Below are positions 3,190 to 61,449 of a stretch of 64,000 nt of DNA, piece by piece. The notes under the pieces are model-generated. The model was not told where the DNA came from. It did no database searches and was given only the letters and a program-made list of their open reading frames with translations. The stretch comes from Eledone cirrhosa (lineage: Eukaryota). Within the stretch, counting starts at the first letter, position 1. Every line of letters starts with the position of its first letter. The translations under genes were made by a program, and so were the position numbers. The stretch is from NCBI GenBank assembly GCA_964016885.1, contig OZ024754.1, positions 18,352,001 to 18,416,000 of the forward strand, written 5' to 3'.

Positions 3190-3536
3190 CATCATCATCA
3201 TCATCATCATCATTTTACGTCCGCTTTTCCCTGCTTGCAAGGGTGGGACGGGAACTGATTCTGGCTTAATTTCTACAGCTGGATGTCCTTCCTAACACCA
3301 ACCTCATTTACAGTGAGTGCTGGGTGCTTTTTTGCCGTGGCACCTCCACGACCACTTTGCAGTGGAATGATAGGGACCCCAGTCCCTATCATCTCATTTC
3401 TACAGCTGAGTAAACTGGAGCAATGTGAAATAAAGTGTCTTGCTCAAGGAAACAACACATCACCCGGTCTGAGAATTTGAACTCACAACCTTTCGATTGC
3501 AAGGCCAATGCTCTAACCACTAAGCCATGTGCCTCC
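3190..3536 (-). mobile_element. tRNA-derived CORE-type SINE, family A (RTE-type tail), full length
   Basis: Reverse complement of 41520-41860. Head GGAGGCACATGGCTTAGTGGTTAGAGC with B-box GAGTTCAAATTC, CORE-like GCAAGACACTTTATTTCACATTGCTCCAGTTTACTCAGCTGTAGAAATGAG, (ATG)n tail. Confidence 0.9.
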
Positions 3537-9184: not shown

Positions 9185-9522
9185 AGGCACATGGCTTAGT
9201 GGTTAGAGCATTGGCCTTGCAATCGAAAGATTGTGAGTTCAATTCTCAGACCGGGTGATGTGTTGTTTCCTTGAGCAAGACACTTTATTTCACATTGCTC
9301 CAGTTTACTCAGCTGTAGAAATGAGATGATAGGGACTGGGGTCCATATCATTCCACTGTAGAGTGGTCGTAGAGGTGCCATGGCAAAAAAGCACCCAGCA
9401 CTCACTGTAAATGAGGTTGGTGTTAGGAAGGGCATCCAGCTGTAGAAATCAAGCCAGAATCAGTTCCCGTCCCACCCTTGCAAGCAGGGAAAAGCGGACG
9501 TAAAATGAAATGATGATGATGA
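9185..9522 (+). mobile_element. SINE family A copy
   Basis: Near-identical to 41520-41860. Confidence 0.9.
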
Positions 9523-13604: not shown

Positions 13605-13654
13605 ATGTATATATATATCTATATATATATATATAGAATTAGAATTTTATTTTT

Positions 13655-13925
13655 AATATTCAGCAAGGCCAGCCATAACTCGCCTGGTATGCAAATGAGG
13701 CTACTCAGCAGATGTGTACTTAAGAAAATACAATATATTTTCAATCGTTCAACAGACTGGCATAGGTATACACTCCTGATGAAGGGTAATGACCCAGAAA
13801 TATGTTGATTGTTCCGCAAACTCAGTGTTGAGCAAACAGGTGACGATCGATCACCGGCACAGCTTCAAATCGGGCCGTTTATTTACAAACGAATCGAACA
13901 TTATTATTAATGTTCAGTATAACAT
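13655..13925 (+). mobile_element. Small non-coding hammerhead-bearing repeat, family H copy 1
   Basis: Colinear with 38640-38900: TATGCAAAT.AGGCT.CTCAGC, CGTTCAA, GGTATA, hammerhead, CAGTGTTGA.CAAA..GGTGACGAT, terminal GAACATT..AATGTTC hairpin. Confidence 0.7.
13771..13811 (+). ncRNA. Minimal type-I hammerhead ribozyme motif (degenerate)
   Basis: CACTC-CTGATGA-a-GGGT-AATG-ACCC-a-GAAA-TAT-GTT-GATTG: core intact, 4-bp stem II, stem I with one mismatch. Confidence 0.6.
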
Positions 13926-14207
13926 ATGTATGTGTGTGTGTGTGTGTGCACGCGTGCACATTTACATTTATATATATTCATTAAAACAACAACAGAGGCC
14001 AAACAGGAAAATTTCGTTCAGAATTTTAATTCTGCGAAAGCGCTATATATATTGTTTGATGTCCCAGCATCCGATCACGGTGCAAGACTTAGACGTATCT
14101 TTTGCGGAATTAGACAACAGGATTACGTTGAACACAGAGAATAGAAAATAGAGGGTTGATTCAATAGAGGGCAGCCTGCTAATTCATTGTTATAGCCATG
14201 CCAGATG

Positions 14208-14952: not shown

Positions 14953-15985
14953 TTAAGATATATTAAGATATAAAGATGCAACATTTGAATTAGAAACAAA
15001 AGACAAAGGAAATGTGTATAAAGCAACTTACCAAACAACCAGTTCTAGAGATATATTTAACAAGTTGCTCTCCACACTGATGGAATGGTAGATAGCGACT
15101 GAATAAGTCTGGGATTCTAGAAGTGGACACTTTTGTACCTTGCTACAACAGGAATAGATGACAACAACAGCACACACATTCACACATACAGAAACACATA
15201 TACACACACTTTTGTACCTTGCTATATCAATAAGTATAGATTGCAACCATGCAATCGCACACATTTGACCTTAACTGTTATTGAAACAGTGTCTTCTATT
15301 TAATTAATAATAAAATGTTAATTGTTGGTAACAGATTGATTCTATAGTAAAACCCAATATACATTGATGCTATAGTAAAATCAAATATGCATTCATAAAT
15401 AATAGAAGAAAATCATTTCTAAAGTCAATATGAGCAACCCATTTAGCATGTCATAAAATTTGTTTAGAAAGTGAGTCATATTGTTTCTATATAAATCAAG
15501 GTCTTTCTAAATAATGGACCATCTGGTCAGAATCTCAGGTCATAGAAAACCAGTAATGGCTTTAGTTTAGATTAGATACACTGAATTATATTCTAAAGAA
15601 TTTACATTCAACTTTATGCAACACAGAATATTAAATATTATTTTTGGTTTCTAAACCAAGTTTTATCAATAAATCTCTCCTGACACCCTACAGTTTTTCG
15701 GGTGTTTTTCAGAAAGGACAAATTGAATAAGGAGGCCATATAATTGATTCTCTCTTTATGGAAACAACTTTGTCTTCAACAGAAATTAATGCTGTGTTGT
15801 GGAATTCTTTACTGTCATCTATTTTCCTACCAGGACACTGCAACAGAATCTGGTATTTGTAGTCTACTGTGAGGTAATTTCTGTATTTCACACATATTGA
15901 GACTGGATCTCCTAAATCACAGCTTTCAAGTGGAATAGGAAACAATGTACTCAAATTTCTTCCTGTGTATGACACAAAGGCATCT

Positions 15986-18900
15986 ATCATGGCTGCCATC
16001 CAGTGACAACCATTAGGGCTGCCATCCAGTGACCACCATTAGGGCTGCCATCCAGTGGCAACCATTAGGGCTGCCATCTAGTGACCACCATTAGGGCTGC
16101 CATCCAGTGACCAGCATCATGGCTGCCATCCAGTGACCACCATCATGGCTGCCATCCAGTGACCACCATTAGAGCTGCCATCCAATGACCACCATTAGGG
16201 CTGCCATCCAATGACCACCATTAGAGCTGCCATCCAATGACCACCATTAGGGCTGCCATCCAGTGACCAGCATTAGGGCTGCCATCCAATGACTACCATT
16301 AGGGCTGCCATCCAGTGACCACCATCATGGCTGCCATCCAGTGACCACCATCATGGCTGCCATCTAGTGACCACCATTAGGGCTGCCATCCAGTGACCAC
16401 CATTAGGGCTGCCATCCAGTGACCACCATTAGGGCTGCCATCCAGTGACCAGCATTAGGGCTGCCATCTAGTGACCACCATTAGGGCTGCCATCTAGTGA
16501 CCACCATTAGGGCTGCCATCCAATGACCACCATTAGGGCTGCCATCCAGTGACCAGCATCATGGCTGCCATCCAGTGACCACCATCATGGCTGCCATCTA
16601 GTGACCACCATTAGGGCTGCCATCCAGTGACCAACATCATGGCTGACATCCAGTGACCAGCATCATGGCTGCCATCCAGTGACCACCATCATGGCTGCCA
16701 TCCAGTGACCACCATTAGGGCTGCCATCCAGTGGCCAGCATCATGGCTGACATCCAGTGACCAGCATCATGGCTGCCATCCAGTGACCACCATCATGGCT
16801 GCCATCCAGTGACCACCATTAGGGCTGCCATCCAGTGACCAGCATCATGGCTGACATCCAGTGACCAGCATCATGGCTGCCATCCAGTGACCACCATCAT
16901 GGCTGCCATCCAGTGACCACCATTAGGGCTGCCATCCAGTGACCAGCATCATGGCTGCCATCCAGTGACCACCATCATGGCTGCCATCCAGTGACCACCA
17001 TCATGGCTGCCATCTAGTTACCACCATTAGGGCTGCCATCCAGTGACCACCATCATGACTGCCATCTAGTGACCAGCATCATGGCTGCCATCCAGTGACC
17101 ACCATTAGGGCTGCCATCCAGTGACCACCATTAGGGCTGCCATCCAGTGACCACCATCATGACTGCCATCTAGTGACCAGCATCATGGCTGCCATCCAGT
17201 GACCACCATTAGGGCTGCCATCCAGTGACCACCATCATGACTGCCATCTAGTGACCAGCATCATGGCTGCCATCCAGTGACCACCATTAGGGCTGCCATC
17301 CAGTGACCACCATTAGGGCTGCCATCTAGTGACCAGCATCATGGCTGCCATCTAGTGACCACCATCATGGCTGCAATCTAGTTACCACCATTAGGGCTGC
17401 CATCTAGTGACCAGCATCATGGCTGCCATCTAGTGACCACCATCATGGCTGCAATCTAGTTACCACCATTAGGGCTGCCATCCAGTGACCACCATCATGG
17501 CTGCCATCCAGTGACCACCATCATGGCTGCCATCCAGTGACCACCATTAGGGCTGCCATCCAGTGACCACCATTAGGGCTGCCATCTAGTGACCAGCATC
17601 ATGGCTGCCATCCAGTGACCACCATTAGGGCTGCCATCCAGTGACCACCATTAGGGCTGCCATCCAGTGACCAGCATCATGGCTGCCATCCAGTGACCAC
17701 CATTAGGGCTGCCATCCAGTGACCACCATTAGGGCTGCCATCTAGTGACCAGCATCATGGCTGCCATCTAGTTACCACCATCATGGCTGCCATCTAGTGA
17801 CCACCATCATGGCTGCCATCTAGTGACCACCATCATGGCTGCCATCTAGTGACCACCATTAGGGCTGCCATCTAGTGACCAGCATCATGGCTGCCATCTA
17901 GTGACCAGCATCATGGCTGCCATCTAGTGACCACCATCATGGCTGCCATCTAGTTACCACCATCATGGCTGCCATCTAGTGACCACCATTAGGGCTGCCA
18001 TCTAGTGACCAGCATCATGGCTGCCATCTAGTGACCACCATCATGGCTGCCATCTAGTTACCACCATCATGGCTGCCATCTAGTGACCACCATTAGGGCT
18101 GCCATCTAGTGACCAGCATTAGGGCTGCCATCTAGTGACCACCATCATGGCTGCCATCCAATGACCACCATTAGGGCTGCCATCTAGTGACCACCATCAT
18201 GGCTGCCATCTAGTGACCACCATTAGGGCTGCCATCTAGTGACCACCATTAGGGCTGCCATCTAGTGACCAGCATCATGGCTGCCATCTAGTTACCACCA
18301 TCATGGCTGCCATCTAGTGACCACCATTAGGGCTGCCATCTAGTGACCAGCATCATGGCTGCCATCTAGTGACCACCATCATGGCTGCCATCCAGTGACC
18401 ACCATTAGGGCTGCCATCCAGTGACCACCATTAGGGCTGCCATCCAGTTACCACCATCATGGCTGCCATCTAGTGACCACCATTAGGGCTGCCATCCAGT
18501 GACCACCATCATGGCTGCCATCTAGTGACCACCATCATGGCTGCCATCCAGTGACCACCATTAGGGCTGCCATCCAGTTACCACCATTAGGGCTGCCATC
18601 CAGTTACCACCATCATGGCTGCCATCTAGTGACCACCATCATGGCTGCCATCTAGTGACCACCATCATGGCTGCCATCCAGTTACCACCATCATGGCTGC
18701 CATCCAGTGACCACCATTAGGGCTGCCATCCAGTGACCAGCATCATGGCTGCCATCCAGTGACCACCATTAGGGCTGCCATCCAGTGACCAGCATCATGG
18801 CTGCCATCCAGTGACCACCATTAGGGCTGCCATCCAGTGACCACCATCATGGCTGCCATCCAGTGACCACCATCATGGCTGCCATCCAGTGACCACCATT

Positions 18901-20771
18901 AGGGCTGCCATCTAGTGACCAGCATTAGGGCTGCCATCTAGTGACCACCATTAGGGCTGCCATCTAGTGACCACCATCATGGCTGCCATCCAGTTACCAC
19001 CATTAGGGCTGCCATCCAGTGACCACCATTAGGGCTGCCATCCAGTGACCAGCATCATGGCTGCCATCCAGTGACCACCATCATGGCTGCCATCCAGTGA
19101 CCACCATCATGGCTGCCATCCAGTGACCACCATCATGGCTGCCATCCAGTGACCACCATTAGGGCTGCCATCCAGTGACCAGCATCATGGCTGCCATCCA
19201 GTGACCAGCATCATGGCTGCCATCTAGTGACCACCATCATGGCTGCCATCTAGTGACCACCATTAGGGCTGCCATCTAGTGACCACCATTAGGGCTGCCA
19301 TCCAGTGACCACCATCATGGCTGCCATCCAGTGACCAGCATCATGGCTGCCATCTAGTGACCACCATCATGGCTGCCATCTAGTGACCACCATTAGGGCT
19401 GCCATCTAGTGACCAGCATCATGGCTGCCATCTAGTGACCACCATCATGGCTGCCATCCAGTGACCACCATTAGGGCTGCCATCCAGTGACCACCATTAG
19501 GGCTGCCATCCAGTGACCAGCATCATGGCTGCCATCCAGTGACCACCATTAGGGCTGCCATCTAGTGACCAGCATCATAGCTGACATACAGTGACCAGCA
19601 TCATGGCTGACATCCAGTGACCACCATTAGGGCTGCCATCCAGTGACCACCATTAGGGCTGCCATCTAGTTACCACCATCATGGCTGCCATCTAGTGACC
19701 ACCATTAGGGCTGCCATCCAGTGACCACCATCATGGCTGCCATCCAGTGACCAGCATCATGGCTGCCATCTAGTGACCACCATCATGGCTGCCATCCAGT
19801 GACCACCATCATGGCTGCCATCTAGTGACCAGCATCATGGCTGCCATCTAGTGACCACCATCATGGCTGCCATCTAGTGACCACCATTAGGGCTGCCATC
19901 CAGTGACCAGCATTAGGGCTGCCATCTAGTGACCACCATCATGGCTGCCATCTAGTGACCACCATTAGGGCTGCCATCCAATGACCACCATTAGGGCTGC
20001 CATCTAGTGACCACCATCATGGCTGCCATCCAGTGACCACCATTAGGGCTGCCATCCAGTGACCAGCATCATGGCTGCCATCCAGTGACCAGCATCATGG
20101 CTGCCATCCAGTGACCACCATTAGGGCTGCCATCCAGTGACCACCATTAGGGCTGCCATCTAGTGACCACCATTAGGGCTGCCATCCAGTGACCACCATT
20201 AGGGCTGCCATCCAGTGACCAGCATCATGGCTGCCATCCAGTGACCACCATTAGGGCTGCCATCTAGTTACCACCATCATGGCTGCCATCTAGTTACCAC
20301 CATCATGGCTGCCATCCAGTGACCACCATTAGGGCTGCCATCCAGTGACCACCATTAGGGCTGCCATCCAGTGACCACCATTAGGGCTGCCATCTAGTGA
20401 CCACCATTAGGGCTGCCATCCAGTGACCAGCATCATGGCTGCCATCCAGTGACCACCATCATGGCTGCCATCCAGTGACCACCATCATGGCTGCCATCCA
20501 GTGACCAGCATCATAGCTGACATACAGTGACCAGCATCATGGCTGCCATCCAGTGACCAGCATCATGGCTGACATCCAGTGACCAGCATCATGGCTGCCA
20601 TCCAGTGACCAGCATCATGGCTGCCATCCAGTGACCACCATCATGGCTGCCATCCAGTGACCAGCATCATAGCTGACATACAGTGACCAGCATCATGGCT
20701 GACATCCAGTGACCAGCATCATGGCTGACATCCAGTGACCAGCATCATGGCTGACATCCAGTGACCAGCAT
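15986..20771. repeat. 4.8-kb minisatellite, 26-bp unit GCTGCCATC(C/T)AGT(G/T)ACCA(C/G)CAT(TAGG/CATG), about 184 units
   Basis: Directly visible tandem array with interspersed variant units. Confidence 0.97.
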
Positions 20772-20989
20772 ACTACCACAACCCTAACCTAAAAGAAGCT
20801 GCTTCGTAAGGAATGCAGACATGACCAGCAACAGTTCAACAAGAGAGACTGTGTAGAAAACAAAATGTTTTCCTCCACAGAAAGTTATCTGTTCAATTGG
20901 AAAGGCTGGATGTTTCCAGATAGATTTGACATGGAGAAATTAACATAACTTCGTGTGAGATATAGGGAGCAATGGTAGGGACTGATACA

Positions 20990-29826: not shown

Positions 29827-31073
29827 TATTTATTTTACTCCTCTGTATATGTCAACTGCTAAGTTACAGAATATGAACAAACAACAATGTAAACACAGGC
29901 TCAACACATATTCATACTATATATAAAGGGCTTTCTATCTACCAAATTCCACTCCCAAGGCTTTGGTCAACCTTGCCCAAAATGCCGTACAGTTGAACTA
30001 AACTTGAAATCATGTGATTGTGAAACAAATTTCTTAAGCATACAGTCATGCCTGCACCCATCTAACTTTCTTTCAAAACTATTATTAACAGTTGGGGCTT
30101 GATTTAGAGATACTTAAAGTTGAGACTGTTCAGATATGTTAGAAATATTTGGGAAATTTTTTCCCCTCTTCTTTTATCATTGTTTTTCCATTGATTTTCG
30201 ATACTAGCATGGATTGGATAGGATGTTTTGAGACAATGTTTTACAGCTAGATGCCATTCTTCATGTCAACTCTTTTATACGCCTCTTATAACATGCAGGG
30301 ATATGATGTACCTATTCCAAAAACCAGAGTACACATGGCATCAGGGTACATACTAATAAAATATGTATTCTAATCTTAACAATCTTGTTCTGTGGTGGTA
30401 AGCCCCTCATCTGGGATGCAACCTGCATTGATATTTTCTGCAGTAACAACTTGGTGGATTCAGCAACAAACATAGGCTACAGTACTCAAAGTTCTGTCTG
30501 TTAGGGTAAACACATCTGAGACACACATTTACAGTTGTGTCTGTTGGGGTCAGCAAATATGAGAATCACATTTACAGTTTTTTTCAATTAAGGTCGTGAA
30601 GAAACATTCACCTAATGTTTTCAGTTTTCTGTTAAGTTGAATAATTATGTATTGCAGCAGACAAGTTTCTAGGAACTAGATTATAACACTTTACATGTTA
30701 ACTAGAAGAATACATTTATGTAATTTGAAGAAAGAATGAACAAAATAAACAATACATTTAACCTTTTTCTTACCAATCTGTCTGAGACTGCCAATCATTG
30801 TAGAATAATGAAACTTCTGAGACCACCTGCATTTAGCTCTCCATATTTACACCAAAACATTGATGTAAATATCATCACAGCAATAGTAATACCATGTGAT
30901 GTCTACTCTGGTAGATGGTTGGCATTAAGAGCTTGCAGCCATAGAAACTATCTTAAAATGGATCGGTCTAGGACAACCTAACTTATGCCAGCATGAAAAC
31001 CAGACATAATACGATGATGGTGATGAAAGAAAGAGATGTGATTGTTTGATAATCTTCAAAGGTTTTTCACACT

Positions 31074-32476
31074 TGATATTCCCACATAACTACTGTGTAC
31101 AGTATTAACATGGTACACATGACCTGATATTCCCACATGACTACTGTGTACAGTATTAACATGGTACACATGACCTGATATTCCCACATGACTGCTGTGT
31201 ACAGTATTAACATGGTACACATGACCTGATATTCCCACATGACTACTGTGTACAGTATTAACATGGTACACATGACCTGATATTCCTACATGACTGCTGT
31301 GTACAGTATTAACATGGTACACATGACCTGATATTCCTACATGACTACTGTGTACAGTATTAACATGGTACACATGACCTGATATTCCTACATGACTACT
31401 GTGTACAGTATTAACATGGTACACATGACCTGATATTCCCACATGACTACTGTGTACAGTATTAACATGGTACACATGACCTGATATTCCCACATGACTA
31501 CTGTGTACAGTATTAACATGGTACACATGACCTGATATTCCCACATGACTACTGTGTACAGTATTAACATGGTACACATGACCTGATATTCGTACATGAC
31601 TGCTGTGTACAGTATTAACATGGTACACATGACCTGATATTCCTACATGACTGCTGTGTACAGTATTAACATGGTACACATGACCTGATATTCCTACATG
31701 ACTACTGTGTACAGTATTAACATGGTACACATGACCTGATATTCCCACATGACTGCTGTGTACAGTATTAACATGGTACACATGACCTGATATTCCCACA
31801 TGACTGCTGTGTACAGTATTAACATGGTACACATGACCTGATATTCCCACATGACTGCTGTGTACAGTATTAACATGGTACAACATGACATGATATTCCC
31901 ACATGACTGCTGTGTACAGTATTAACATGGTACAACATATGATATTCCCACATGACTGCTGTGTCCAGTATTAACATGGTACAACATGACATGATATTCT
32001 CACATGACTGCTGTGTACAGTATTAACATGGTACATGACATGATATTCCCACATGACTGCTGTGTACAGTATTAACATGGTACAACATGACATGATATTC
32101 TCACATGACTGCTGTGTACAGTATTAACATGGTACACATGACCTGATATTCCCACATGACTGCTGTGTACAGTATTAACATGGTACAACATGACATGATA
32201 TTCCCACATGACTGCTGTGTACAGTATTAACATGGTACAACATATGATATTCCCACATGACTGCTGTGTACAGTATTAACATGGTACAACATGACATGAT
32301 ATTCCCACATGACTGCTGTGTACAGTATTAACATGGTACAACATGACATGATATTCTCACATGACTGCTGTGTACAGTATTAACATGGTACATGACATGA
32401 TATTCCCACATGACTACCGTGTACAGTATTAACATGATACCACATGACCTGATATTCCTACATGACTGCTGTGTAC
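31074..32476. repeat. 51-bp minisatellite, about 27 units, with indel variants in the right third
   Basis: Unit TGATATTCCCACATGACT(A/G)CTGTGTACAGTATTAACATGGTACACATGACC. Confidence 0.97.
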
Positions 32477-36732: not shown

Positions 36733-37524
36733 TTAATGATAAGGTCCCCAATATTATCAAGAAAAGCTATGTAAAATGAAGCATCTTGGTTGAGAATACA
36801 ATGCACAACCCACCCAATCCAAGAATAGAACCCACAACTTCATGGTTGTTCACCCAACACTCTAACCATTATGATATATGCCTTTACAAATCTATTAATG
36901 AAAAACTGAAGCTTCACCAGAAATATTTTAGAACAAACACTGACCTCATGTCTGGTATACTGCTCTGAAACCTGGCTACAATAACTTAGTCTAAACATAA
37001 TACACACTGTTATTGATCAAGCATTAGTCTCCATAATGGCTCTCTTACTGCTATAACTACAATCAATATTCTTTTTTTATGCAATAATTTAGGTATGCCA
37101 GAGCTATTTTTTACTCATTCTAATTTCTCTATCAGTTATTTTACCTTCATTTCACACAATGATTATCTTTTTATAAGCAGGTTTTCTATTTAAAAAAAAA
37201 TTCTATATTGATATTCAGAATAACAAATTACAAAGAATAAAAGAAAGCTATACTTTTATTATCTAAACATATTCTAGTTACTACAGAAATGGTTTCTCAA
37301 TTTTATTTTGAATAAAAAGGTGTTCCCCCCTGTAGCCTCTATATCAACTTTAATCTGCTCAATATCCATTACTTTTGCAGCAATAAATATATCATTCCTC
37401 CTGTTATACTGCATATATAAAGGAAAGGAACTAGTCACGGGATCAAACCTTACCAACAATAAATATATCATTACCCTTCTCTTTTAATACTGCATATATA
37501 AAGGAAAGGAGCTGGGCATGAGAT

Positions 37525-38510
37525 TAAACCAAGGAAACAATGTTTACACTGATTTTTTCCATTGTTGATAATGTATTTGTTGTAGTGGGTTTGTGTTTGC
37601 AGGTTTGTATTGTAGGGCTTGAAATTTTCCAGCATTAAACTGCATGTTGTTATCTTCAGCCCATTTGTATATGGCATCCAGATCTTGCTGTAAAAGGGCA
37701 GATTCAGGCGTGTTTTTGATTGCCTGTGCTACCTTAGTGTCATCAGCATAAGTAGTGAGGGTTGTTGTATGTACTATAGAGGGCATGTCTGAGAGAGCCA
37801 CCAAAAACAATGGTGGTCCCAAGATTGTGCCCTGGGGCACCCCACTTGTTACTGATGTTTCCTTTGAGAGGGCCCAGTTTGCTGCAACTGTCTGGCTTCT
37901 GTCCTTTAAGAAGTCATGCAGTCACTCACCTACTTTTCCAGTTATGCCGAGTCCGTATAGTTTATGACATATCGTTCCGTGGTGGACCTTGTCAAAGGCC
38001 TTCGCAAAGTCAAGATATATCACGTCCACATGTGAGCTGTCTAGCAGTTGTTTCAGTACCCAGTCGTAGTGTTGTAGCAGCTATGTAAGGCAGCTTCTTC
38101 CTGGGCGGAAGCCATGCTGCGTGCTAGTCAGGCGGTCATTTTTCTCGAGGAACGTGATCAGTTTCTTTCTGACAACTCGCTCCATGACCTTACTGATATG
38201 TGACGTCAGGGAGACTGGCCTATAGTTTTTGGCCTCTGCTCTGCTACCTCCTTTCTTGATAGGGCATATTGTGCCTTCTTTCAGCTCTCTGGGTAGTTTA
38301 CCGCTAGCCAAGGAGCTTCTGAAGAGGGGCATCAGTGGAGTTGCTAAGGCACGCTTACATGTTTTTAGGAGGATTGCTGGGAATCCATCAGGTCCAGCAG
38401 CTGAGTCTGTTCTAATTTCATCTATGGCGTATACGACATCCTCCTCCGTTATGTTTATGTGGTTGATGGTCGCCATTTCTTCATGGAGTGTTGTGGCATC
38501 AAATAAATCC
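37525..38510 (-). mobile_element. CR1-group LINE reverse transcriptase fragment (pseudogenised)
   Basis: SAAGPDGF..NYRPVSLTSHISKVMERVV..QHGFRPGRSCLT*..IYLDFAKAFDKV..PQGTILGP..YADDTK..LQQDLDAIYKWAEDNNMQFN; stops and frameshifts. Confidence 0.92.
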
Positions 38511-38992
38511 TACTACTGTGCGTCTGTACACATATATGTATGTACGTATACACACTTATATTTAGGTATCAGCCGTACTAAGAGTGAGAAATGAAATTTC
38601 GTTTCATTCTTTTCCATTTATCGTTTTCGGTATGCCCGGCCGACTAACACACTCGATATGCAAATTAGGCTGCTCAGCCATTAATATGCATAAGGAAAGT
38701 ATATACTTTCAGACGTTCAATCATCTGACAGAAAGGTATAAGATGCTGACGATAGCTAATAAGCTTGAAAGTAGTACATCGTTCCTGTGTCAGTGTTGAA
38801 CAAAAGGGTGACGATGGTTGCCGAGCACTGTACGGCGTAATTCGGGCTGTTTGTTTACAAACAAACCGAACATTATAATAAATGTTCGGTAAACCCATAC
38901 GTACATATATATATGTGTGCATGTATGTATATATATATACATACTACTGTGCGTCTGTACACATATATGTATGTACATATACATACTTATAT
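38511..38992 (+). mobile_element. Hammerhead-bearing repeat, family H copy 2, with ~50-bp terminal direct repeat
   Basis: TACTACTGTGCGTCTGTACACATATATGTATGTAC at both 38511 and 38942; the interior is homologous to 13655-13925. Confidence 0.7.
38742..38780 (+). ncRNA. Minimal type-I hammerhead ribozyme motif
   Basis: GATG-CTGACGA-t-AGCT-AATA-AGCT-t-GAAA-GTA-GTA-CATC: perfect stems I and II, GUA cleavage triplet, defective stem III. Confidence 0.65.
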
Positions 38993-39136: not shown

Positions 39137-39666
39137 ATCCCAGTGATTAAGCAGAGCAGTTGCCGGTCCAGCAAAAATTAGAAATTAGTATCAGTGCTCT
39201 GAAATAGTGATGTATGTATGACTGTATGTATAGTATATTTGATAATATACTGTATGTTTATTTTAAAACATTTTGAAGACCATTCGCTATGAGTCTTAAA
39301 GTGGTGACTATGTCACTTACTTTGTCTCAGCAAAAACAATTTCAGAGCCCTGATACTAATTTCTAATTTTTGCTGGACCGGCAACTGCTCTGCTTAATCA
39401 GCTCTTAAACATCACTGGAATTCTATAAGGATCCAGCTTCGATAAGTCTCAGCAGAAGCGGAGGGATAAGCAATCTTGATAACCGTTAACAAAAGAGAAA
39501 CAGCTGTCAGTTGATTCCCTTTGTTTTTGCCGAGACAAAGTAAGTGACATAGTCACTACTTGAAAACGCACAGCAAATGGTCTTCAAAATGTTTTTAAAT
39601 AACCATACAGTATATTATCAAATATGCTATACATACAGTCATACATACATTGCTATATCAGGACAC
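39133..39666. repeat. Interleaved inverted repeats A-B-A'-spacer-B'
   Basis: A 39144-39205 vs A' 39339-39400 (61/62 complementary); B 39206-39339 vs B' 39521-39655 (more diverged). Confidence 0.9.
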
Positions 39667-41519: not shown

Positions 41520-41860
41520 GGAGGCACATGGCTTAGTGGTTAGAGCATTGGCCTTGCAATCGAAAGGTTGTGAGTTCAATTCTCAGACCGGGTGATGTGT
41601 TGTTTCCTTGAGCAAGACACTTTATTTCACATTGCTCCAGTTTACTCAGCTGTAGAAATGAGATGATAGGGACTGGGGTCCCTATCATTCCACTGCAAAG
41701 TGGTCGTGGAGGTGCCACGGCAAAAAAGCACCCAGCACTCACTGTAAATGAGGTTGGTGTTAGGAAGGGCATCCAGCTGTAGAAATCAAGCCAGAATCAG
41801 TTCCCGTCCCACCCTTGCAAGCAGGGAAAAGCGGACGTAAAATGATGATGATGATGATGA
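41520..41860 (+). mobile_element. SINE family A, full-length copy
   Basis: tRNA-like A and B boxes, CORE-like block, GGTTGGTGTTAGGAAGGGCATCCAGC module, RTE-like tail, (ATG)n. Confidence 0.92.
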
Positions 41861-41889
41861 TATATATGTGTGTATATATATATATTTAT

Positions 41890-42915
41890 TCGTCCTCTCC
41901 CACAACTCCACCCAGCTCTCATCCTTGTTCCCTTTCCCGCTGCAACACTTGTCCCTTCATTTCTGCCCTGACCACTCTTACAGGCCCTAACGAGTCTTTC
42001 TGTATCCCCCATTCCTTCACCTGCAAATCCACCCACAGTCTATGCCCTCCGGTGTTCCCTTTGCGGGTCTTTATATATTGGACAAACCGGGCGCCGTATG
42101 GCGGACCGTTTTGCCGAACATTTGAGGGACATACGACTTGGTTTCAATACTCCTGCCACCTATCATTTCTGTCCTCCTGAGTGTACTATTACATCATGGA
42201 TCACAGGCCTCGCGCACCAAGACTGAACAGTCTGATTCACCACCTTGGGTCCTATTCCCCTCTTGGACTCAACTCACCTCCCCAATTTCTTTAATACCCT
42301 GTCCAATATCACACACGCTTGTACATTCACTCCAAGATTCCGGTCGCTCTCTCATGATCATTAACATCTCTTACAACTAATACATGCCGATTATATATGC
42401 CCACTCCCCATTTCCCTTCACTGCTCTGTATACACTCATACACACCCTTCTATTAACATACTTTTGCTCATAGCTTCGTACTTACATGCACACACACTCT
42501 TTTACTCACATATACACACACATTTCTTCTTGGCTTCGTACAGACGTATAATAACACACATGCTTACGCATGTACACAAGTATAGCTCTTTCTACGAAAC
42601 CGTTTTTTTTTTCCATTTCAGATAGACGCACTCCATCATCCACTTTTCTAAAAAGTAAATCATACACAAAATGCCAGCCCCAACAGTTTTGCAAGAGATG
42701 TCAACATGAATGGACCTACATTTTTATCTAAAGACATTTTTTCCAATTCCAACCCGCCCGTTCCCTCAATCTATCTTATTTCTCATTCTTTCTTCTGATG
42801 AAGGACTAGCGTCCGAAACGTTATGACCTTCTTCCTGTTATATCAAGTGTTAACCTAATATATCCCTTCCATATACTGTACCGATTGTGTTGCTATTTCT
42901 GTTTACCTTTTACAT
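41890..42915 (+). mobile_element. Penelope-like element 3' remnant (Neptune-type Cys linker + GIY-YIG, 3' region with hammerhead)
   Basis: HPCSLSRCNTCPFI..TGPNESFCIPHSFTCKSTH/VYALRCSLCGSLYIGQTGRRMADRFAEHLRDIR (frameshift near 42037); hammerhead at 42791. Confidence 0.85.
42791..42826 (+). ncRNA. Minimal hammerhead ribozyme motif of PLE pLTR type
   Basis: TCTT-CTGATGA-a-GGAC-TAGC-GTCC-GAAAC-GTT-ATGA; palindromic AACGTT in place of stem III; stem I with one mismatch. Confidence 0.7.
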
Positions 42916-42978
42916 ATATATATATATATCTATCACATAAGAAACGGAGAATCAGTGTTGCGACGAATAAAATTTATT

Positions 42979-44189: not shown

Positions 44190-46850
44190 TTTAGATATTA
44201 TTTTAATTTCTTATGTTGTCTGTATTACCGTCATGTCTTTGTTTGGCGTGTTCATATAGTGCCGAACCGTCTTTTTGCCCTTTTAGTTCCCCCCAGTGTT
44301 GGTCTATTCTTTCTATGCTTTGAGCTGTCTCGCCTATGTATGTTGTCATATTTCTGCAAGTACCCTCTGTACATCTTATGCTATAGACTACATTTCTAGT
44401 TTTACAGTTTATCTGGGGGTTTATTTTACATATAACACATTTCTTATTCGTACTATGGGTTTTCTTAAAGGGGTATATTTATCTGATCAGGGATTTTATG
44501 GTAGCTCTTGGTTTTTCTACCACTTTAATCTTTAGATGGGTTTTTCTTAGGGCCTTTCTACATTGCTAAGCTAATTTCCCTCCAGGGGTAGCATACACTC
44601 TGGTATCTGTGATTGTCGTACCATGAAGTGGTTTTCCCTATCTTATGTTTAGTCCTATCTAAGCTATTCCATGATTTGCTCCTGTATAATGGGCAAATTC
44701 CTTTCATGTCCAGTTCTATGAGTGTCTTATACTTCTCCATGGTTCCTTTGTATACTCTGATTCTGTCTCTTTGGTTGTAGCCAGAGAACTGCATGCGGTT
44801 GATGAAGTGTTGGCTGTGTCTTTCCATTTCTGTTGGGTCGCACATGCGGGACACATTCTTCATCACTCGTACCAAGTCTGTGATCAGAATATTAAACTTA
44901 GCACTATTGGACATTGTTGAGTTTTTGAGTATCAGGTATTGGAGGCCATGGGTTTAGCATAGTGTGAGTGGAGGATTTCGGCTCTCTCGTTTATAGTGTT
45001 TATCCAGAGTTCTGTGTCTAATACTGGTAGTCTATTGTTAGGGTGTTTGGAAGGGTAGTCAATGGTTACAGTAATACTCTGGTGTATGGAGTTAGTCTGC
45101 TGGATGCTCTCCATTGTGCTATCTTCTAATTCATGTTTATTAGTACTCTCTTGTGGAGGTGTTCTTATTACTATATAAATATCGTCTACGTAACGAGAGT
45201 ACACGAAGAGGGCTATGGAGTTCTCTGAGTCTCCTTTCCCACCATACCATAAATAGATTGGCAACATCACCAGCTATGCTGACACCAATAGCTGCTCCCT
45301 CATTCTGTGTGTAGACCTTTTTATTAAATTTAAACATATAGCCCTTTATGGTAGGTTTAATACTAGCCCCTATTGCATTTTTCTCACCTGATCGTTGTTT
45401 TGGGGTGTTTGTATGGCTTTGGTCCATCCATTCCATCTTCCTATGGGAGTCTTTTTAGTCATTGAGGTTATGGAGGTGGGGGTCTACCTCTTATAGGTCT
45501 ACTGGGGCAGAAACCAATATGGTCATTGTTATCTAGGTATTCGGTGACATAAGTAAGTCTAAGTAGGAGGCCCAGTTCATCTGTATCGACATCGCAGAAC
45601 TCCACTTCACTCTCACTGATTATTTCCACACATTTTTCCACAGCAAAATCAATGTCAATGGATGGGTATAGTGATACCACATCCATACTGCCTATTATGC
45701 AGTTTGTTAAGTTTTTGTTGCATTCATTGATTCTACTGAGGTCCTCTGTGCTGTCACATATATCTGGGGACATCTTAATTATGGGGCATATAACCATAGA
45801 GAGGAAGTAGGAGATCCTGTAGTTACTAGCAATATTGGCTCCACATACAGGTCTTGTTGTTGGTCCTGTCATCGGGTTGTTGGTTGTTTTATGGTCTTTG
45901 CGGAGCCCATACAAGGGTGGTATGTCATTGTTAGACATTTGGAAGTTGTTGGCTGTGCGTTTACTTGGCTTTAGGATGTTAGGTCCACATCATCATGTGA
46001 GTATTGGGGATCTTTTCTCTCTCCTCATGTGTTTGTTGTGTTGTTTCGCTCGTGTTGATGATGTGGGGTTGCATAGCCTTGATATAGTTCGGCATGCTGT
46101 CTATTGACATCTTACCAGATTTATCTGTGGGTAGACACACTACTTCACCATTTCTTGTGCGCTGCTTGAGGCTAAGTTGGCTTTCTACAGGTTTTCTTCC
46201 AAGTTGTTGAATTTCTGGTCTGTTTTGTCTCCTAGTATATTGGTCTACTACCTGTCTAAATTTATTTATAGCTATGGTAAACTGTGCCTCTGTTTGGTCA
46301 TCTATTTGTTGTGGTATACAAACTCTTTTATTAAAAGGTAATTTAGTGGGATAAATTTTCTTCATCTTGTATGTTTTGTCAGCTGGGTTCTTATTAAATC
46401 TACCGTTATAGTTGTGTGTACTATTATTATTATGGCTGTTGTTGTTCCTACTGTTAACATTATTATTATTGTTATGATGGTTAAATGTATTGTTGTTGTT
46501 CTCTCCATTGTTGTTGTTACTGCTATTTCTACCAGTGTGGTTGTTACCTGTATTGTTACGTTTTTTGTTTTTTGTTTTTGTTGTTGTTGTTGTTATTCTG
46601 CCTGTCGTTAACGTTACTGCTCCTGCTGTTTCCATTATTATTATTATTTTCCTCTCTCCTGCTATTGTTATAGTTATGACTATTATTATCATAGCTGTTA
46701 TTTCTATAGTCAAAGTTATTGTTTATATTACTACTTTCGTTATTATTATTATTGTTCGTATTGTTATTTATGTTCACGTTCCAATGTATTTTAGTGAAGG
46801 ACTTTTCAATCTCCGACAGGCATTGTACTGGGTTTACCTTGTTATATAGT
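44190..46850 (-). mobile_element. Penelope-like retroelement, near full-length and decayed (RT + Cys linker + C-terminal GIY-YIG)
   Basis: EIEKSFTKIHW, PTKLPFNKRVCIP, VVCLPTDKSGKM, PPLYGLRKDHK, TRPVCGA, GSMDVVSLYPSID, YTQNEGAAIG, YSRYVDDIY, LPVLDTELW, HYAKPMAS, FSGY, ATPGGKLA, KCVICK..NCKTRNVVYSIRC..YIGETAQS (44317-44395); many stops and frameshifts. Confidence 0.92.
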
Positions 46851-59392: not shown

Positions 59393-59744
59393 CAATGTCA
59401 GTATGGAAAAATGGACATTAAATAATGATGATGTATGTGTTTATCCATGTCTCTGTCCAGGTGTATATACAACCAATTCTCTGTGTGCATGTTTATGTTG
59501 TTTGTTTCTATCTCATAATTTAGCTGTTTGGCAAATAGCAATCACTAAAATAGGAACCACACTTGAAGAAATATGTACAGAGTGATCAATATGATCGACT
59601 AAAATTCCATAAAGGAGGCACCCCAGCATGGCCGCAGTCTAATGACCAAAAATAGTAAAAGAATAAAAAGGTAGCGTCAATTTTATCCCCATCAAATAAC
59701 TAATACATTAGCTTGCTTACATCAACAACAAATGTTTCACTTGC

Positions 59745-61355
59745 ACTCCCAGTCCCCAACAGACATGTCTAGTCCCTCGCACTCACCAACAGACGTGTCT
59801 AGTCCCTCGCACTCACCAACAGACGTGTCTAGTCCCTCGCACTCCCCAACAGACGTGTCTAGTCCCTCGCACTCCCCAACAGACGTGTCTAGTCCCTCGC
59901 ACTCCCCAACAGACGTGTCTAGTCCCTCGCACTCACCAACAGACGTGTCTGGTCCCTCGCACTCCCCAACAGACGTGTCTGGTCCCTCGCACTCACCAAC
60001 AGACGTGTCTAGTCCCTCGCACTCACCAACAGACGTGTCTGGTCCCTCGCACTCCCCAACAGACGTGTCTGGTCCCTCGCACTCACCAACAGACGTGTCT
60101 AGTCCCTCGCACTCCTCAACAGACGTGTCTAGTCCCTCGCACTCACCAACAGACGTGTCTGGTCCCTCGCACTCACCAACAGACGTGTCTAGTCCCTCGC
60201 ACTCACCAACAGACGTGTCTAGTCCCTCGCACTCACCAACAGACGTGTCTGGTCCCTCGCACTCACCAACAGACGTGTCTGGTCCCTCGCACTCCCCAAC
60301 AGACGTGTCTGGTCCCTCGCACTCACCAACAGACGTGTCTAGTCCCTCGCACTCACCAACAGACGTGTCTGGTCCCTCGCACTCCCCAACAGACGTGTCT
60401 GGTCCCTCGCACTCACCAACAGACGTGTCTAGTCCCTCGCACTCCTCAACAGACGTGTCTAGTCCCTCGCACTCACCAACAGACGTGTCTGGTCCCTCGC
60501 ACTCCCCAACAGACGTGTCTGGTCCCTCGCACTCCCCAACAGACGTGTCTGGTCCCTCGCACTCACCAACAGACGTGTCTAGTCCCTCGCACTCCCCAAC
60601 AGACGTGTCTGGTCCCTCGCACTCACCAACAGACGTGTCTAGTCCCTCGCACTCACCAACAGACGTGTCTGGTCCCTCGCACTCCCCAACAGACGTGTCT
60701 GGTCCCTCGCACTCACCAACAGACGTGTCTAGTCCCTCGCACTCCTCAACAGACGTGTCTAGTCCCTCGCACTCACCAACAGACGTGTCTGGTCCCTCGC
60801 ACTCACCAACAGACGTGTCTAGTCCCTCGCACTCACCAACAGACGTGTCTAGTCCCTCGCACTCACCAACAGACGTGTCTGGTCCCTCGCACTCACCAAC
60901 AGACGTGTCTGGTCCCTCGCACTCCCCAACAGACGTGTCTGGTCCCTCGCACTCACCAACAGACGTGTCTAGTCCCTCGCACTCACCAACAGACGTGTCT
61001 GGTCCCTCGCACTCCCCAACAGACGTGTCTGGTCCCTCGCACTCACCAACAGACGTGTCTAGTCCCTCGCACTCCTCAACAGACGTGTCTAGTCCCTCGC
61101 ACTCACCAACAGACGTGTCTGGTCCCTCGCACTCCCCAACAAACGTGTCTGGTCCCTCGCACTCCCCAACAGACGTGTCTGGTCCCTCGCACTCACCAAC
61201 AGACGTGTCTAGTCCCTCGCACTCCCCAACAGACGTGTCTGGTCCCTCGCACTCACCAACAGACGTGTCTAGTCCCTCGCACTCACCAACAGACGTGTCT
61301 GGTCCCTCGCACTCCCCAACAGACGTGTCTGGTCCCTCGCACTCACCAATAGATG
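59745..61355. repeat. 30-bp minisatellite AGACGTGTCT(A/G)GTCCCTCGCACTC(A/C)CCAAC, about 54 units
   Basis: Directly visible and highly homogeneous. Confidence 0.97.
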
Positions 61356-61449
61356 TATCTACTCACGTCCACTCAATTTTCTCAAGATTACTTCATATCA
61401 CTTAAATCATGTCCAAATACTTCACATATTCCATTATAACATTTTATGC

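Follow-up and report, generated by a model that had tools for sequence, protein, structure and literature searches.

The window, the 64-kb stretch of Eledone cirrhosa DNA that was analysed, is rich in (TA)n and in transposon debris. It contains two copies, A and B, of a repeat with a hammerhead ribozyme motif (Table 1). They are 69% identical over 241 nt (E 9e-19) and are members of two subfamilies of one non-coding repeat. Copy A stops at a 3' end position here called site 1, after which (TA)n follows. The 51-bp direct repeat that bounds it reflects the redundancy of tandem units, which rules it out as an LTR or a TSD.

An earlier note on this DNA had described two colinear hammerhead segments of about 270 bp. 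All motifs are found where it placed them, including the stem I and stem II sequences, the U.U and A.A at the base of stem II, and octamers at 38658 and 13689, while the unit is about 430 bp long. Stem III of the two copies (AGTAGT and ATATGT) was said to be one change away from a palindrome, and the family majority indeed has the perfect palindromes ACTAGT and ACATGT. The hairpin at 38865-38890, which had been called terminal, is present but internal. AATAAA is ruled out as a poly(A) signal, since it is missing in copy B and the copies end in (TA)n.

The private changes of both window copies fall in stems I and III. At 38741 and 38771 more than 99% of the read depth from two sequencing runs of one sample is C, unlike copy A of the window, and contigs from these runs represent family variants only. 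Copies A and B are damaged monomers and, judged by their sequence, probably inert. An Rfam scan of the window at E<=5 gave only microsatellite noise, with no hammerhead among the 150 matches listed of 157.

Table 1. Positions of the two repeat copies, their parts, and a decayed Penelope-like element in the window
Feature	Position	Strand	Remarks
Copy B, older subfamily B	13643..13971	+	5'-truncated sub-monomer between microsatellites; 3' end at site 1
Octamer module TATGCAAATGAGG of copy B	13688..13700	+	13 nt identical to an element upstream of one U6 gene and the RNase MRP gene
Hammerhead of copy B	13770..13812	+	core CTGATGA 13776-82; stem II GGGT/ACCC, A.A at base
Private changes in copy B hammerhead	13773 and 13801	+
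Predicted cut of copy B hammerhead	after T13806 (GUU)	+
Copy A, subfamily A1	38511..38992	+	one 431-bp unit 38511-38941 plus 51-bp terminal redundancy 38942-38992
Tail of copy A, between 3' end sites 1 and 2	38560..38621	+	about 59 nt; small hairpin and T-run
Octamer module TATGCAAATTAGG of copy A	38657..38669	+	matches the -77 to -79 element of U6, U6atac and RNase MRP genes
TCAG of copy A, putatively PSE-like	38674..38677	+	position of U1/U2 TCA(G/A)T at -56 to -58
TATA-like box of copy A	38700..38706	+	would place a predicted start at 38730 if TATA = -30
Type I hammerhead of copy A, extended stem I	38725..38793	+	core CTGACGA 38746-52
Stems of copy A hammerhead	outer 38725-29/38789-93; stem I 38740-45/38777-82; stem II 38754-57/38762-65	+	U.U at stem II base; stem III palindromic
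Private changes in copy A hammerhead	38741 and 38771	+
Predicted cut of copy A hammerhead	after A38776 (GUA)	+	
Internal 10-bp hairpin of copy A	38865..38890	+	common to subfamily B
TA/TG-rich microsatellite-like segment inside the repeat unit	38898..38941	+	runs on as 38511-38559 of the next unit
Decayed Penelope-like element	about 44200-46750	-	DKSG, RT and GIY-YIG motifs; frameshifted

Copy A has other elements on both sides. A 5'-truncated LINE-type RT fragment at 37500-38510 on the minus strand abuts its 5' end, and a plus-strand fragment, which we take to be RTE-like, begins at about 39002 after the (TA)n. Both the LINE-type fragment and the decayed Penelope-like element were considered as the source element and rejected, as neither has any sequence in common with copy A.

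The window also holds a third hammerhead, at 42600-42930 on the plus strand (core at 42795, CTGATGA...GAAACGTT). It belongs to an unrelated repeat family with similar sequence at several other loci. Family C (loci L096-L109 and L117-L120 on C1) consists of 310-bp hammerhead arrays with many units, arranged head-to-head. Their stem II frequently has U.U at its base, and the arrays examined are without the octamer motif. Pieces of it, 68-82% identical and in both orientations, lie at 39153-39661, just to the right of copy A. A hammerhead pattern that excludes A and B matches the genome 24,210 times, against 17 times in the control. Among the remaining repeats are a 26-bp unit repeated about 180 times in an array at about 15900-20900, more minisatellites near 31000-32000 and 59700-61400, and three 97-99% identical repeats of about 280 bp (3194-3477, 9241-9508, and 41578-41861) near weak tRNA-like matches, which are a young SINE.

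A Non-Coding Family of Tandem Units

A 35-place hammerhead pattern has 12,971 exact matches in the 3.0-Gb genome and none in the control; the first 100 matches listed are all A-type. A pattern made from the internal hairpin has 12,622 matches, also with none in the control. Searching the whole genome for copies, which the earlier note had proposed, has thus brought out about 13,000 units. The best relatives of copy A are 96-98% identical to it (40 scored of 3,869 first-look genome candidates), and those of copy B 87-90% (2,156 genome candidates).

The units contain no ORF and take in the TA/TG-rich segment. Tandem and inverted arrangements are frequent, and most copies are 1-3-mers scattered over many chromosomes. 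The tandem period is 420-431 bp in subfamilies A1 and A2, where arrays have from two to at least seven units, and the unit is about 380-430 bp long in B. In A3 (L161) the units reach 483-511 bp, with longer microsatellite segments. A3 and the relatives D (L114 and L092; 466-bp unit) and E (L160 and L163) have the same order of promoter-like module and hammerhead. Subfamilies A, B, D, and E have diverged, yet they keep this one non-coding layout. In four young arrays the units differ by 0-3 nt in about 225 within an array and by 2-14 between arrays, and in two other arrays by 6-15 nt within the array. The internal hairpin has an AT-rich loop, and a common tRNA-like repeat, presumably a SINE, recurs inside this loop or next to it (L011, L036, L052, L054, and L056).

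The Hammerhead Fold

The stems of the hammerhead differ in sequence between the subfamilies. In the majority sequences stem I is ACGATG/CATCGT in A1, ACGTTG/CAGCGT in A2, and ACAGTC/GATTGT in B. Stem II is AGCT/AGCT or GGGT/ACCC, closed by U.U or A.A, and stem III is palindromic, with predicted cuts at GUA or GUU. Stem I continues into two more helices. The core is intact in 49 of 62 sampled units.

Covariation was assessed with nine sequences (A1, A2, A3, B, and D). In this set 96.9% of the cells are paired and nine of 18 pairs have changed on both sides, while none of 500 shuffles scored as high and slid controls were 29-43% paired; because these sequences share ancestry and also supplied the structure itself, this is strong support but not a probability. 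The conserved RNA fold with compensatory stem changes that had been proposed from the two window copies is thus borne out across subfamilies. The single-strand fold z-scores are weak for the window copies (-1.29 and +0.31) and lower for majority-type copies of A (-2.21) and B (-4.22), while A2 has only -1.36. It has been reported that a palindromic helix III leads to activity as a dimer (PMC4209133), and U.U at the base of helix II is also found in an active axolotl retrozyme (PMC7229834).

Insertion Ends

The ends of the copies were studied in 64 loci that were picked only by the internal hairpin, from the first 100 matches on C1. Of the 101 3' ends in these loci, site 1 accounts for 40 and site 2, which lies about 59 nt beyond it, for 46, leaving 15 at other positions; the limits of the two sites were drawn after the ends had been inspected. 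Of the 86 ends at the two sites, 74 have (TA)4 or a longer tract after them. Subfamily B has the same two 3' ends, judged by eye. The T-run in the tail between the sites is T4 in copy A and T6 in the majority of copies, and T6 or T7 is found in 62 of 77 tails. The 3' ends of the family are in this way fixed on (TA)n and the 5' ends variable, with TSDs unreadable in the microsatellite.

The 64 loci contain 40 single-armed insertions and 31 two-armed ones, in which the arms are inverted head-to-head. Whenever both ends of a two-armed insertion are at the sites (22 of 22), there is one of each. The others have at least one end elsewhere (eight) or run off their locus (one). Counted as independent cases, that is without two duplicates at L325 and with one array split over L289 and L298 added, 21 of 21 have one arm per site, which has a p of about 5e-7 if pairing were random. 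The 5' ends are scattered. A weak excess, eight of 63, is seen at the 5' strand of stem I, and there is no pile-up near the cut site (two of 63) or the predicted start (one of 63). Cleaved linear RNA has thus left no trace at the cut site, and since arrays cross this site for at least seven units the template would be a circle or an uncut multimer.

In published descriptions, insertions of Penelope-like elements (PLEs) consist of partial tandems, have one arm that is inverted and truncated, and bear a tail at a single end (10.1101/2021.04.23.441226). RT has two internal start sites, and the tail corresponds to the sequence that separates them (PMC11167929). A single tail in each two-armed insertion is the Penelope signature and provides direct genomic evidence for Penelope-type mobilisation, the enzyme itself being deduced from its footprint. 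The earlier proposal of a non-autonomous family mobilised by a PLE RT is therefore supported by the ends of the copies.

The Promoter-Like Module

Most columns in an alignment of subfamilies A, B, D, and E are variable. The block TATGCAAA is invariant, and so is a TATA core that follows about 43-46 nt after it. A related arrangement is found in host small-RNA genes. Three U6 gene types and U6atac have the 12-base motif TATG(C/G)(A/T)AAT(T/G)AG at -77 to -79 and TATA at -30. The genes in question are a pair of single U6 genes, the majority of copies in a U6 cluster, and the top match to U6atac. The motif is missing from 15 other U6 and 11 other U6atac matches, whose flanks were taken to mark them as retrocopies or interrupted copies. 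The single RNase MRP gene served as an independent test of the motif and, as predicted, carries the octamer module of copy B at -78, identical over 13 nt, and TATA at -30. The motif is absent at that position from all 50 U1/U2 loci, and the octamer is therefore ruled out as a U1/U2 promoter element. RNase P, which was considered as another octamer-bearing gene, is without the octamer and has a U1/U2-type TCAGT plus a T-run instead. In 720 kb of background, counting both strands, the 12-base motif has seven matches, all of them inside retrozyme copies.

The nine U1/U2 promoter types all have TCA(G/A)T at -56 to -58. Copies A and B have TCAG 26-27 nt before TATA, at the corresponding place. The two rulers, TATA and TCAG, agree on a predicted start at 38730 in copy A, and the predicted start falls on the same aligned purine in A, in B, and in one of two E copies. 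The outer helix of the hammerhead pairs sequence upstream of this start and would thus form only in read-through or circular RNA.

The small-RNA genes display a promoter grammar of their own (loci L171-L190, L221-L250, L191-L220, L266, L356, and L357): U1 and U2 combine TCA(G/A)T at -57 with a TATA-like box, while U6, U6atac, and MRP combine the 12-mer at -78 with TATA at -30. Many of these genes also have a TTACCTCCCTT-like distal motif around -260. The grammar is useful for guide-RNA promoters in this lineage.

On this sequence evidence the octamer is likely part of the host small-RNA promoter module, and the repeat likely drives its own transcription. The choice of polymerase is less clear-cut. 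The spacing from octamer to TATA is 4-6 nt shorter than the 47-49 nt of host Pol III genes, and arrays must cross a T6-T7 run at which Pol III would stop before a full unit had been made; both points favour Pol II. As RNase P carries TCAGT, the TCAG is not Pol II-specific and the preference is tentative. In insects, small differences in the PSE have been reported to decide the polymerase (PMC1761439).

The repeat might instead be a U6-type, SINE-like Pol III gene whose RNA runs from the predicted start to the T6 run, with promoter-bearing copies arising from rare read-through. Of the host genes examined, U6, U6atac, and MRP are indeed the only ones with the octamer motif, and the T-run lies at the would-be transcript end, just before the next promoter. 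This explanation is nevertheless unlikely, because copies ending at site 2 reach 4-7 nt beyond the T-run, this run is crossed by most copies and arrays, and the 5' ends do not pile up at the predicted start. Site 2 is for the same reason an unlikely Pol III terminus, its ends lying beyond the T-run.

Slightly less probable again is a retrozyme that has no promoter of its own, where octamer and TATA would be structural or due to chance and the RNA would come from host read-through, as a 2020 review proposes. Retrozymes in general seem to be without promoters according to that review (PMC7761336), family C arrays are abundant although they are without the motif, and the spacing in the present family is 4-6 nt off that of host Pol III genes. 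Chance would, however, have to account for 12-13 nt of identity with the U6/MRP element with no background match outside the family in 720 kb, for its conservation in four subfamilies, and for a predicted start on one aligned purine. We therefore prefer a repeat that likely carries its own promoter.

Penelope-Like Elements in the Genome

A search for GIY-YIG PLEs gave 10,595 candidates in the genome, of which 150 were scored and 50 loci read. PLE ORFs of up to 938 and 1096 amino acids with a cysteine linker of the Neptune/Nematis type were found. Many of the Neptune-type PLEs terminate in (TA)n. In one family a hammerhead lies in sense orientation, and its stem II has U.U at the base. The genome thus holds a young family of about 13,000 units beside PLE ORFs of about 900-1100 amino acids, and the family co-occurs with autonomous PLEs, a feature of metazoan non-LTR retrozymes.

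Could an autonomous Penelope-like element outside the sample have this repeat as its pLTR or 3' end, the copies being truncated products of that element? The PLE-type ends and the PLE-like hammerhead would fit, as would the small part of the GIY-YIG candidates that was scored and read. In Xenopus 24 of 57 retrozyme families are reported to match known repeats, nearly all of them PLEs and at PLE termini (bioRxiv 10.64898/2026.07.22.740005). Against this, the 420-431 bp period leaves no ORF between units in arrays of seven or more, and A, B, D, and E have diverged under a single non-coding layout. The earlier note had asked whether copies flank PLE ORFs; among 154 sampled family loci ten have a PLE protein match and none has one in sense directly 5' of a unit. 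Apart from inserted copies and microsatellite, nothing in the 50 PLE loci matches A or B, and the octamer module is missing from the PLE 3' UTRs that were checked. A pLTR origin must be regarded as very improbable. Spread by recombination at the DNA level, as a satellite or minisatellite whose hammerhead is vestigial, can be all but dismissed, for although tandem arrays exist and local tandem amplification has been proposed for Xenopus in the same preprint, the dispersed copies with fixed 3' and variable 5' ends, (TA)n targets, and one tail per insertion already largely refute it, and the stems covary.

Two junctions connect the retrozyme with other repeats. In one of the ten family loci with a PLE protein match (L011/L355) a retrozyme arm lies head-to-head with a tandem PLE, which is of the same family as the decayed element of the window and whose arm does not end on (TA)n. 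The decayed element is 84% identical to the better preserved tandem copy in L355, and the pLTR of that copy has a hammerhead. In L315, one of the 40 single-armed insertions, the retrozyme is head-to-head with a different hammerhead repeat that ends in (TA)n. These junctions may be taken as hints of machinery in common, and not as an identification of the partner.

A Proposed Cycle

We consider it highly probable that the family is a tandem repeat of the metazoan non-LTR retrozyme kind, likely transcribed from its own captured snRNA-type promoter and likely copied into (TA)n by a PLE RT and endonuclease. The cycle could have four steps. The octamer, PSE-like, and TATA module would start an RNA about 16 nt before the hammerhead core, judged by position. 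Transcription would then run through the T-rich tail into the next units, probably by Pol II; Pol III is a good deal less likely, and the lack of a working promoter less likely still. Hammerheads would pair via the palindromic stem III and cut as dimers, as inferred from other retrozymes, to give unit-length RNA that may be ligated into circles. Finally, a Penelope-type protein would cut the (TA)n target and prime reverse transcription. Synthesis of each strand would begin at one or the other of two internal positions separated by about 59 nt, and the RT would continue across the hammerhead cut site, in some cases for several units. Of this last step the genome displays the ends, the arms, and the tandem units, and the enzyme is the part supplied by analogy.

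A more specific version can be put forward tentatively, and we regard it as possible rather than probable. Here a U6/MRP-type promoter of the host would have been captured and its spacing moved by half a turn of the helix, allowing Pol II to pass the T6 tract. Dimers of a Neptune-type PLE would copy a multimeric or circular template from two start sites, sometimes pairing the retrozyme RNA with a different RNA in one insertion. If this is true, the family would be a self-promoting circular-RNA parasite, with its entire cycle legible in genomic sequence.

The family bears on two questions, the transcription of animal retrozymes and the enzyme that mobilises them. It supplies a mechanistic footprint, the single tail in 21 of 21 two-armed insertions, and a promoter candidate with a predicted start, so both questions become testable with short natural sequences.

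Comparison with Known Systems

On the features that can be tested in a genome, the family fits the metazoan non-LTR retrozymes. Those of coral, mussel, and axolotl likewise encode no protein, form tandem units of 150-450 bp, contain a type I hammerhead whose helix III is weak and palindromic, and have low GC and thousands of copies; they are without PBS or PPT (PMC7229834). The axolotl HHR_Amex2 has the same U.U mismatch at the base of helix II. The present family differs in its dispersed 1-3-mers, its PLE-type inverted arms, its two fixed 3' ends on (TA)n, and its promoter-like module. Cleavage and circles have been shown for the known retrozymes (PMC7229834), and in this family both are putative.

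EN+ PLE pLTRs of the Neptune/Nematis type (PMC4209133; 10.1101/2021.04.23.441226; PMC11167929) share with it a hammerhead whose helix III is palindromic, partial tandems, an inverted 5'-truncated arm, a tail at one end only, and microsatellite targets. Here there is no ORF, the tail is about 59 nt against 30-40 nt, and no match to the pLTRs sampled was found. Cleavage by the PLE hammerhead has been reported to be dispensable in vitro (PMC11167929).

Mobilisation of retrozymes by PLEs has been proposed before (PMC7229834; bioRxiv 10.64898/2026.07.22.740005). Papers of 2020 considered PLEs a strong candidate and saw no promoter (PMC7229834; PMC7761336). For the Xenopus retrozymes the same relation to PLEs is proposed; that case rests on co-occurrence and pLTR homology, and one of nine predicted retrozyme dimers was cleaved (bioRxiv 10.64898/2026.07.22.740005). 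The case made here depends on insertion geometry, with no homology found to the pLTRs sampled. The suggestion that such a family was possibly not described in this lineage holds for the family itself, as the literature searched contains no description of it, of a cephalopod retrozyme, or of a U6-type retrozyme promoter (the family may be catalogued in Repbase or Dfam); the class is already known.

Schistosome repeats and newt satellite 2 have been cited with Pol III and snRNA promoters (PMC2220036). Satellite 2 of the newt is a tandem hammerhead repeat with an internal snRNA-type promoter that, according to the account in that source, drives Pol II (Coats, Zhang, Epstein 1994, via PMC2220036). 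It belongs to another lineage, while here the motif is the host U6/MRP element with TATA at a shifted spacing. This promoter-bearing precedent and the known class limit the surprise. The retrozyme class has already been described (PMC7229834; bioRxiv 10.64898/2026.07.22.740005), and the two-site ends and the candidate promoter module go beyond it.
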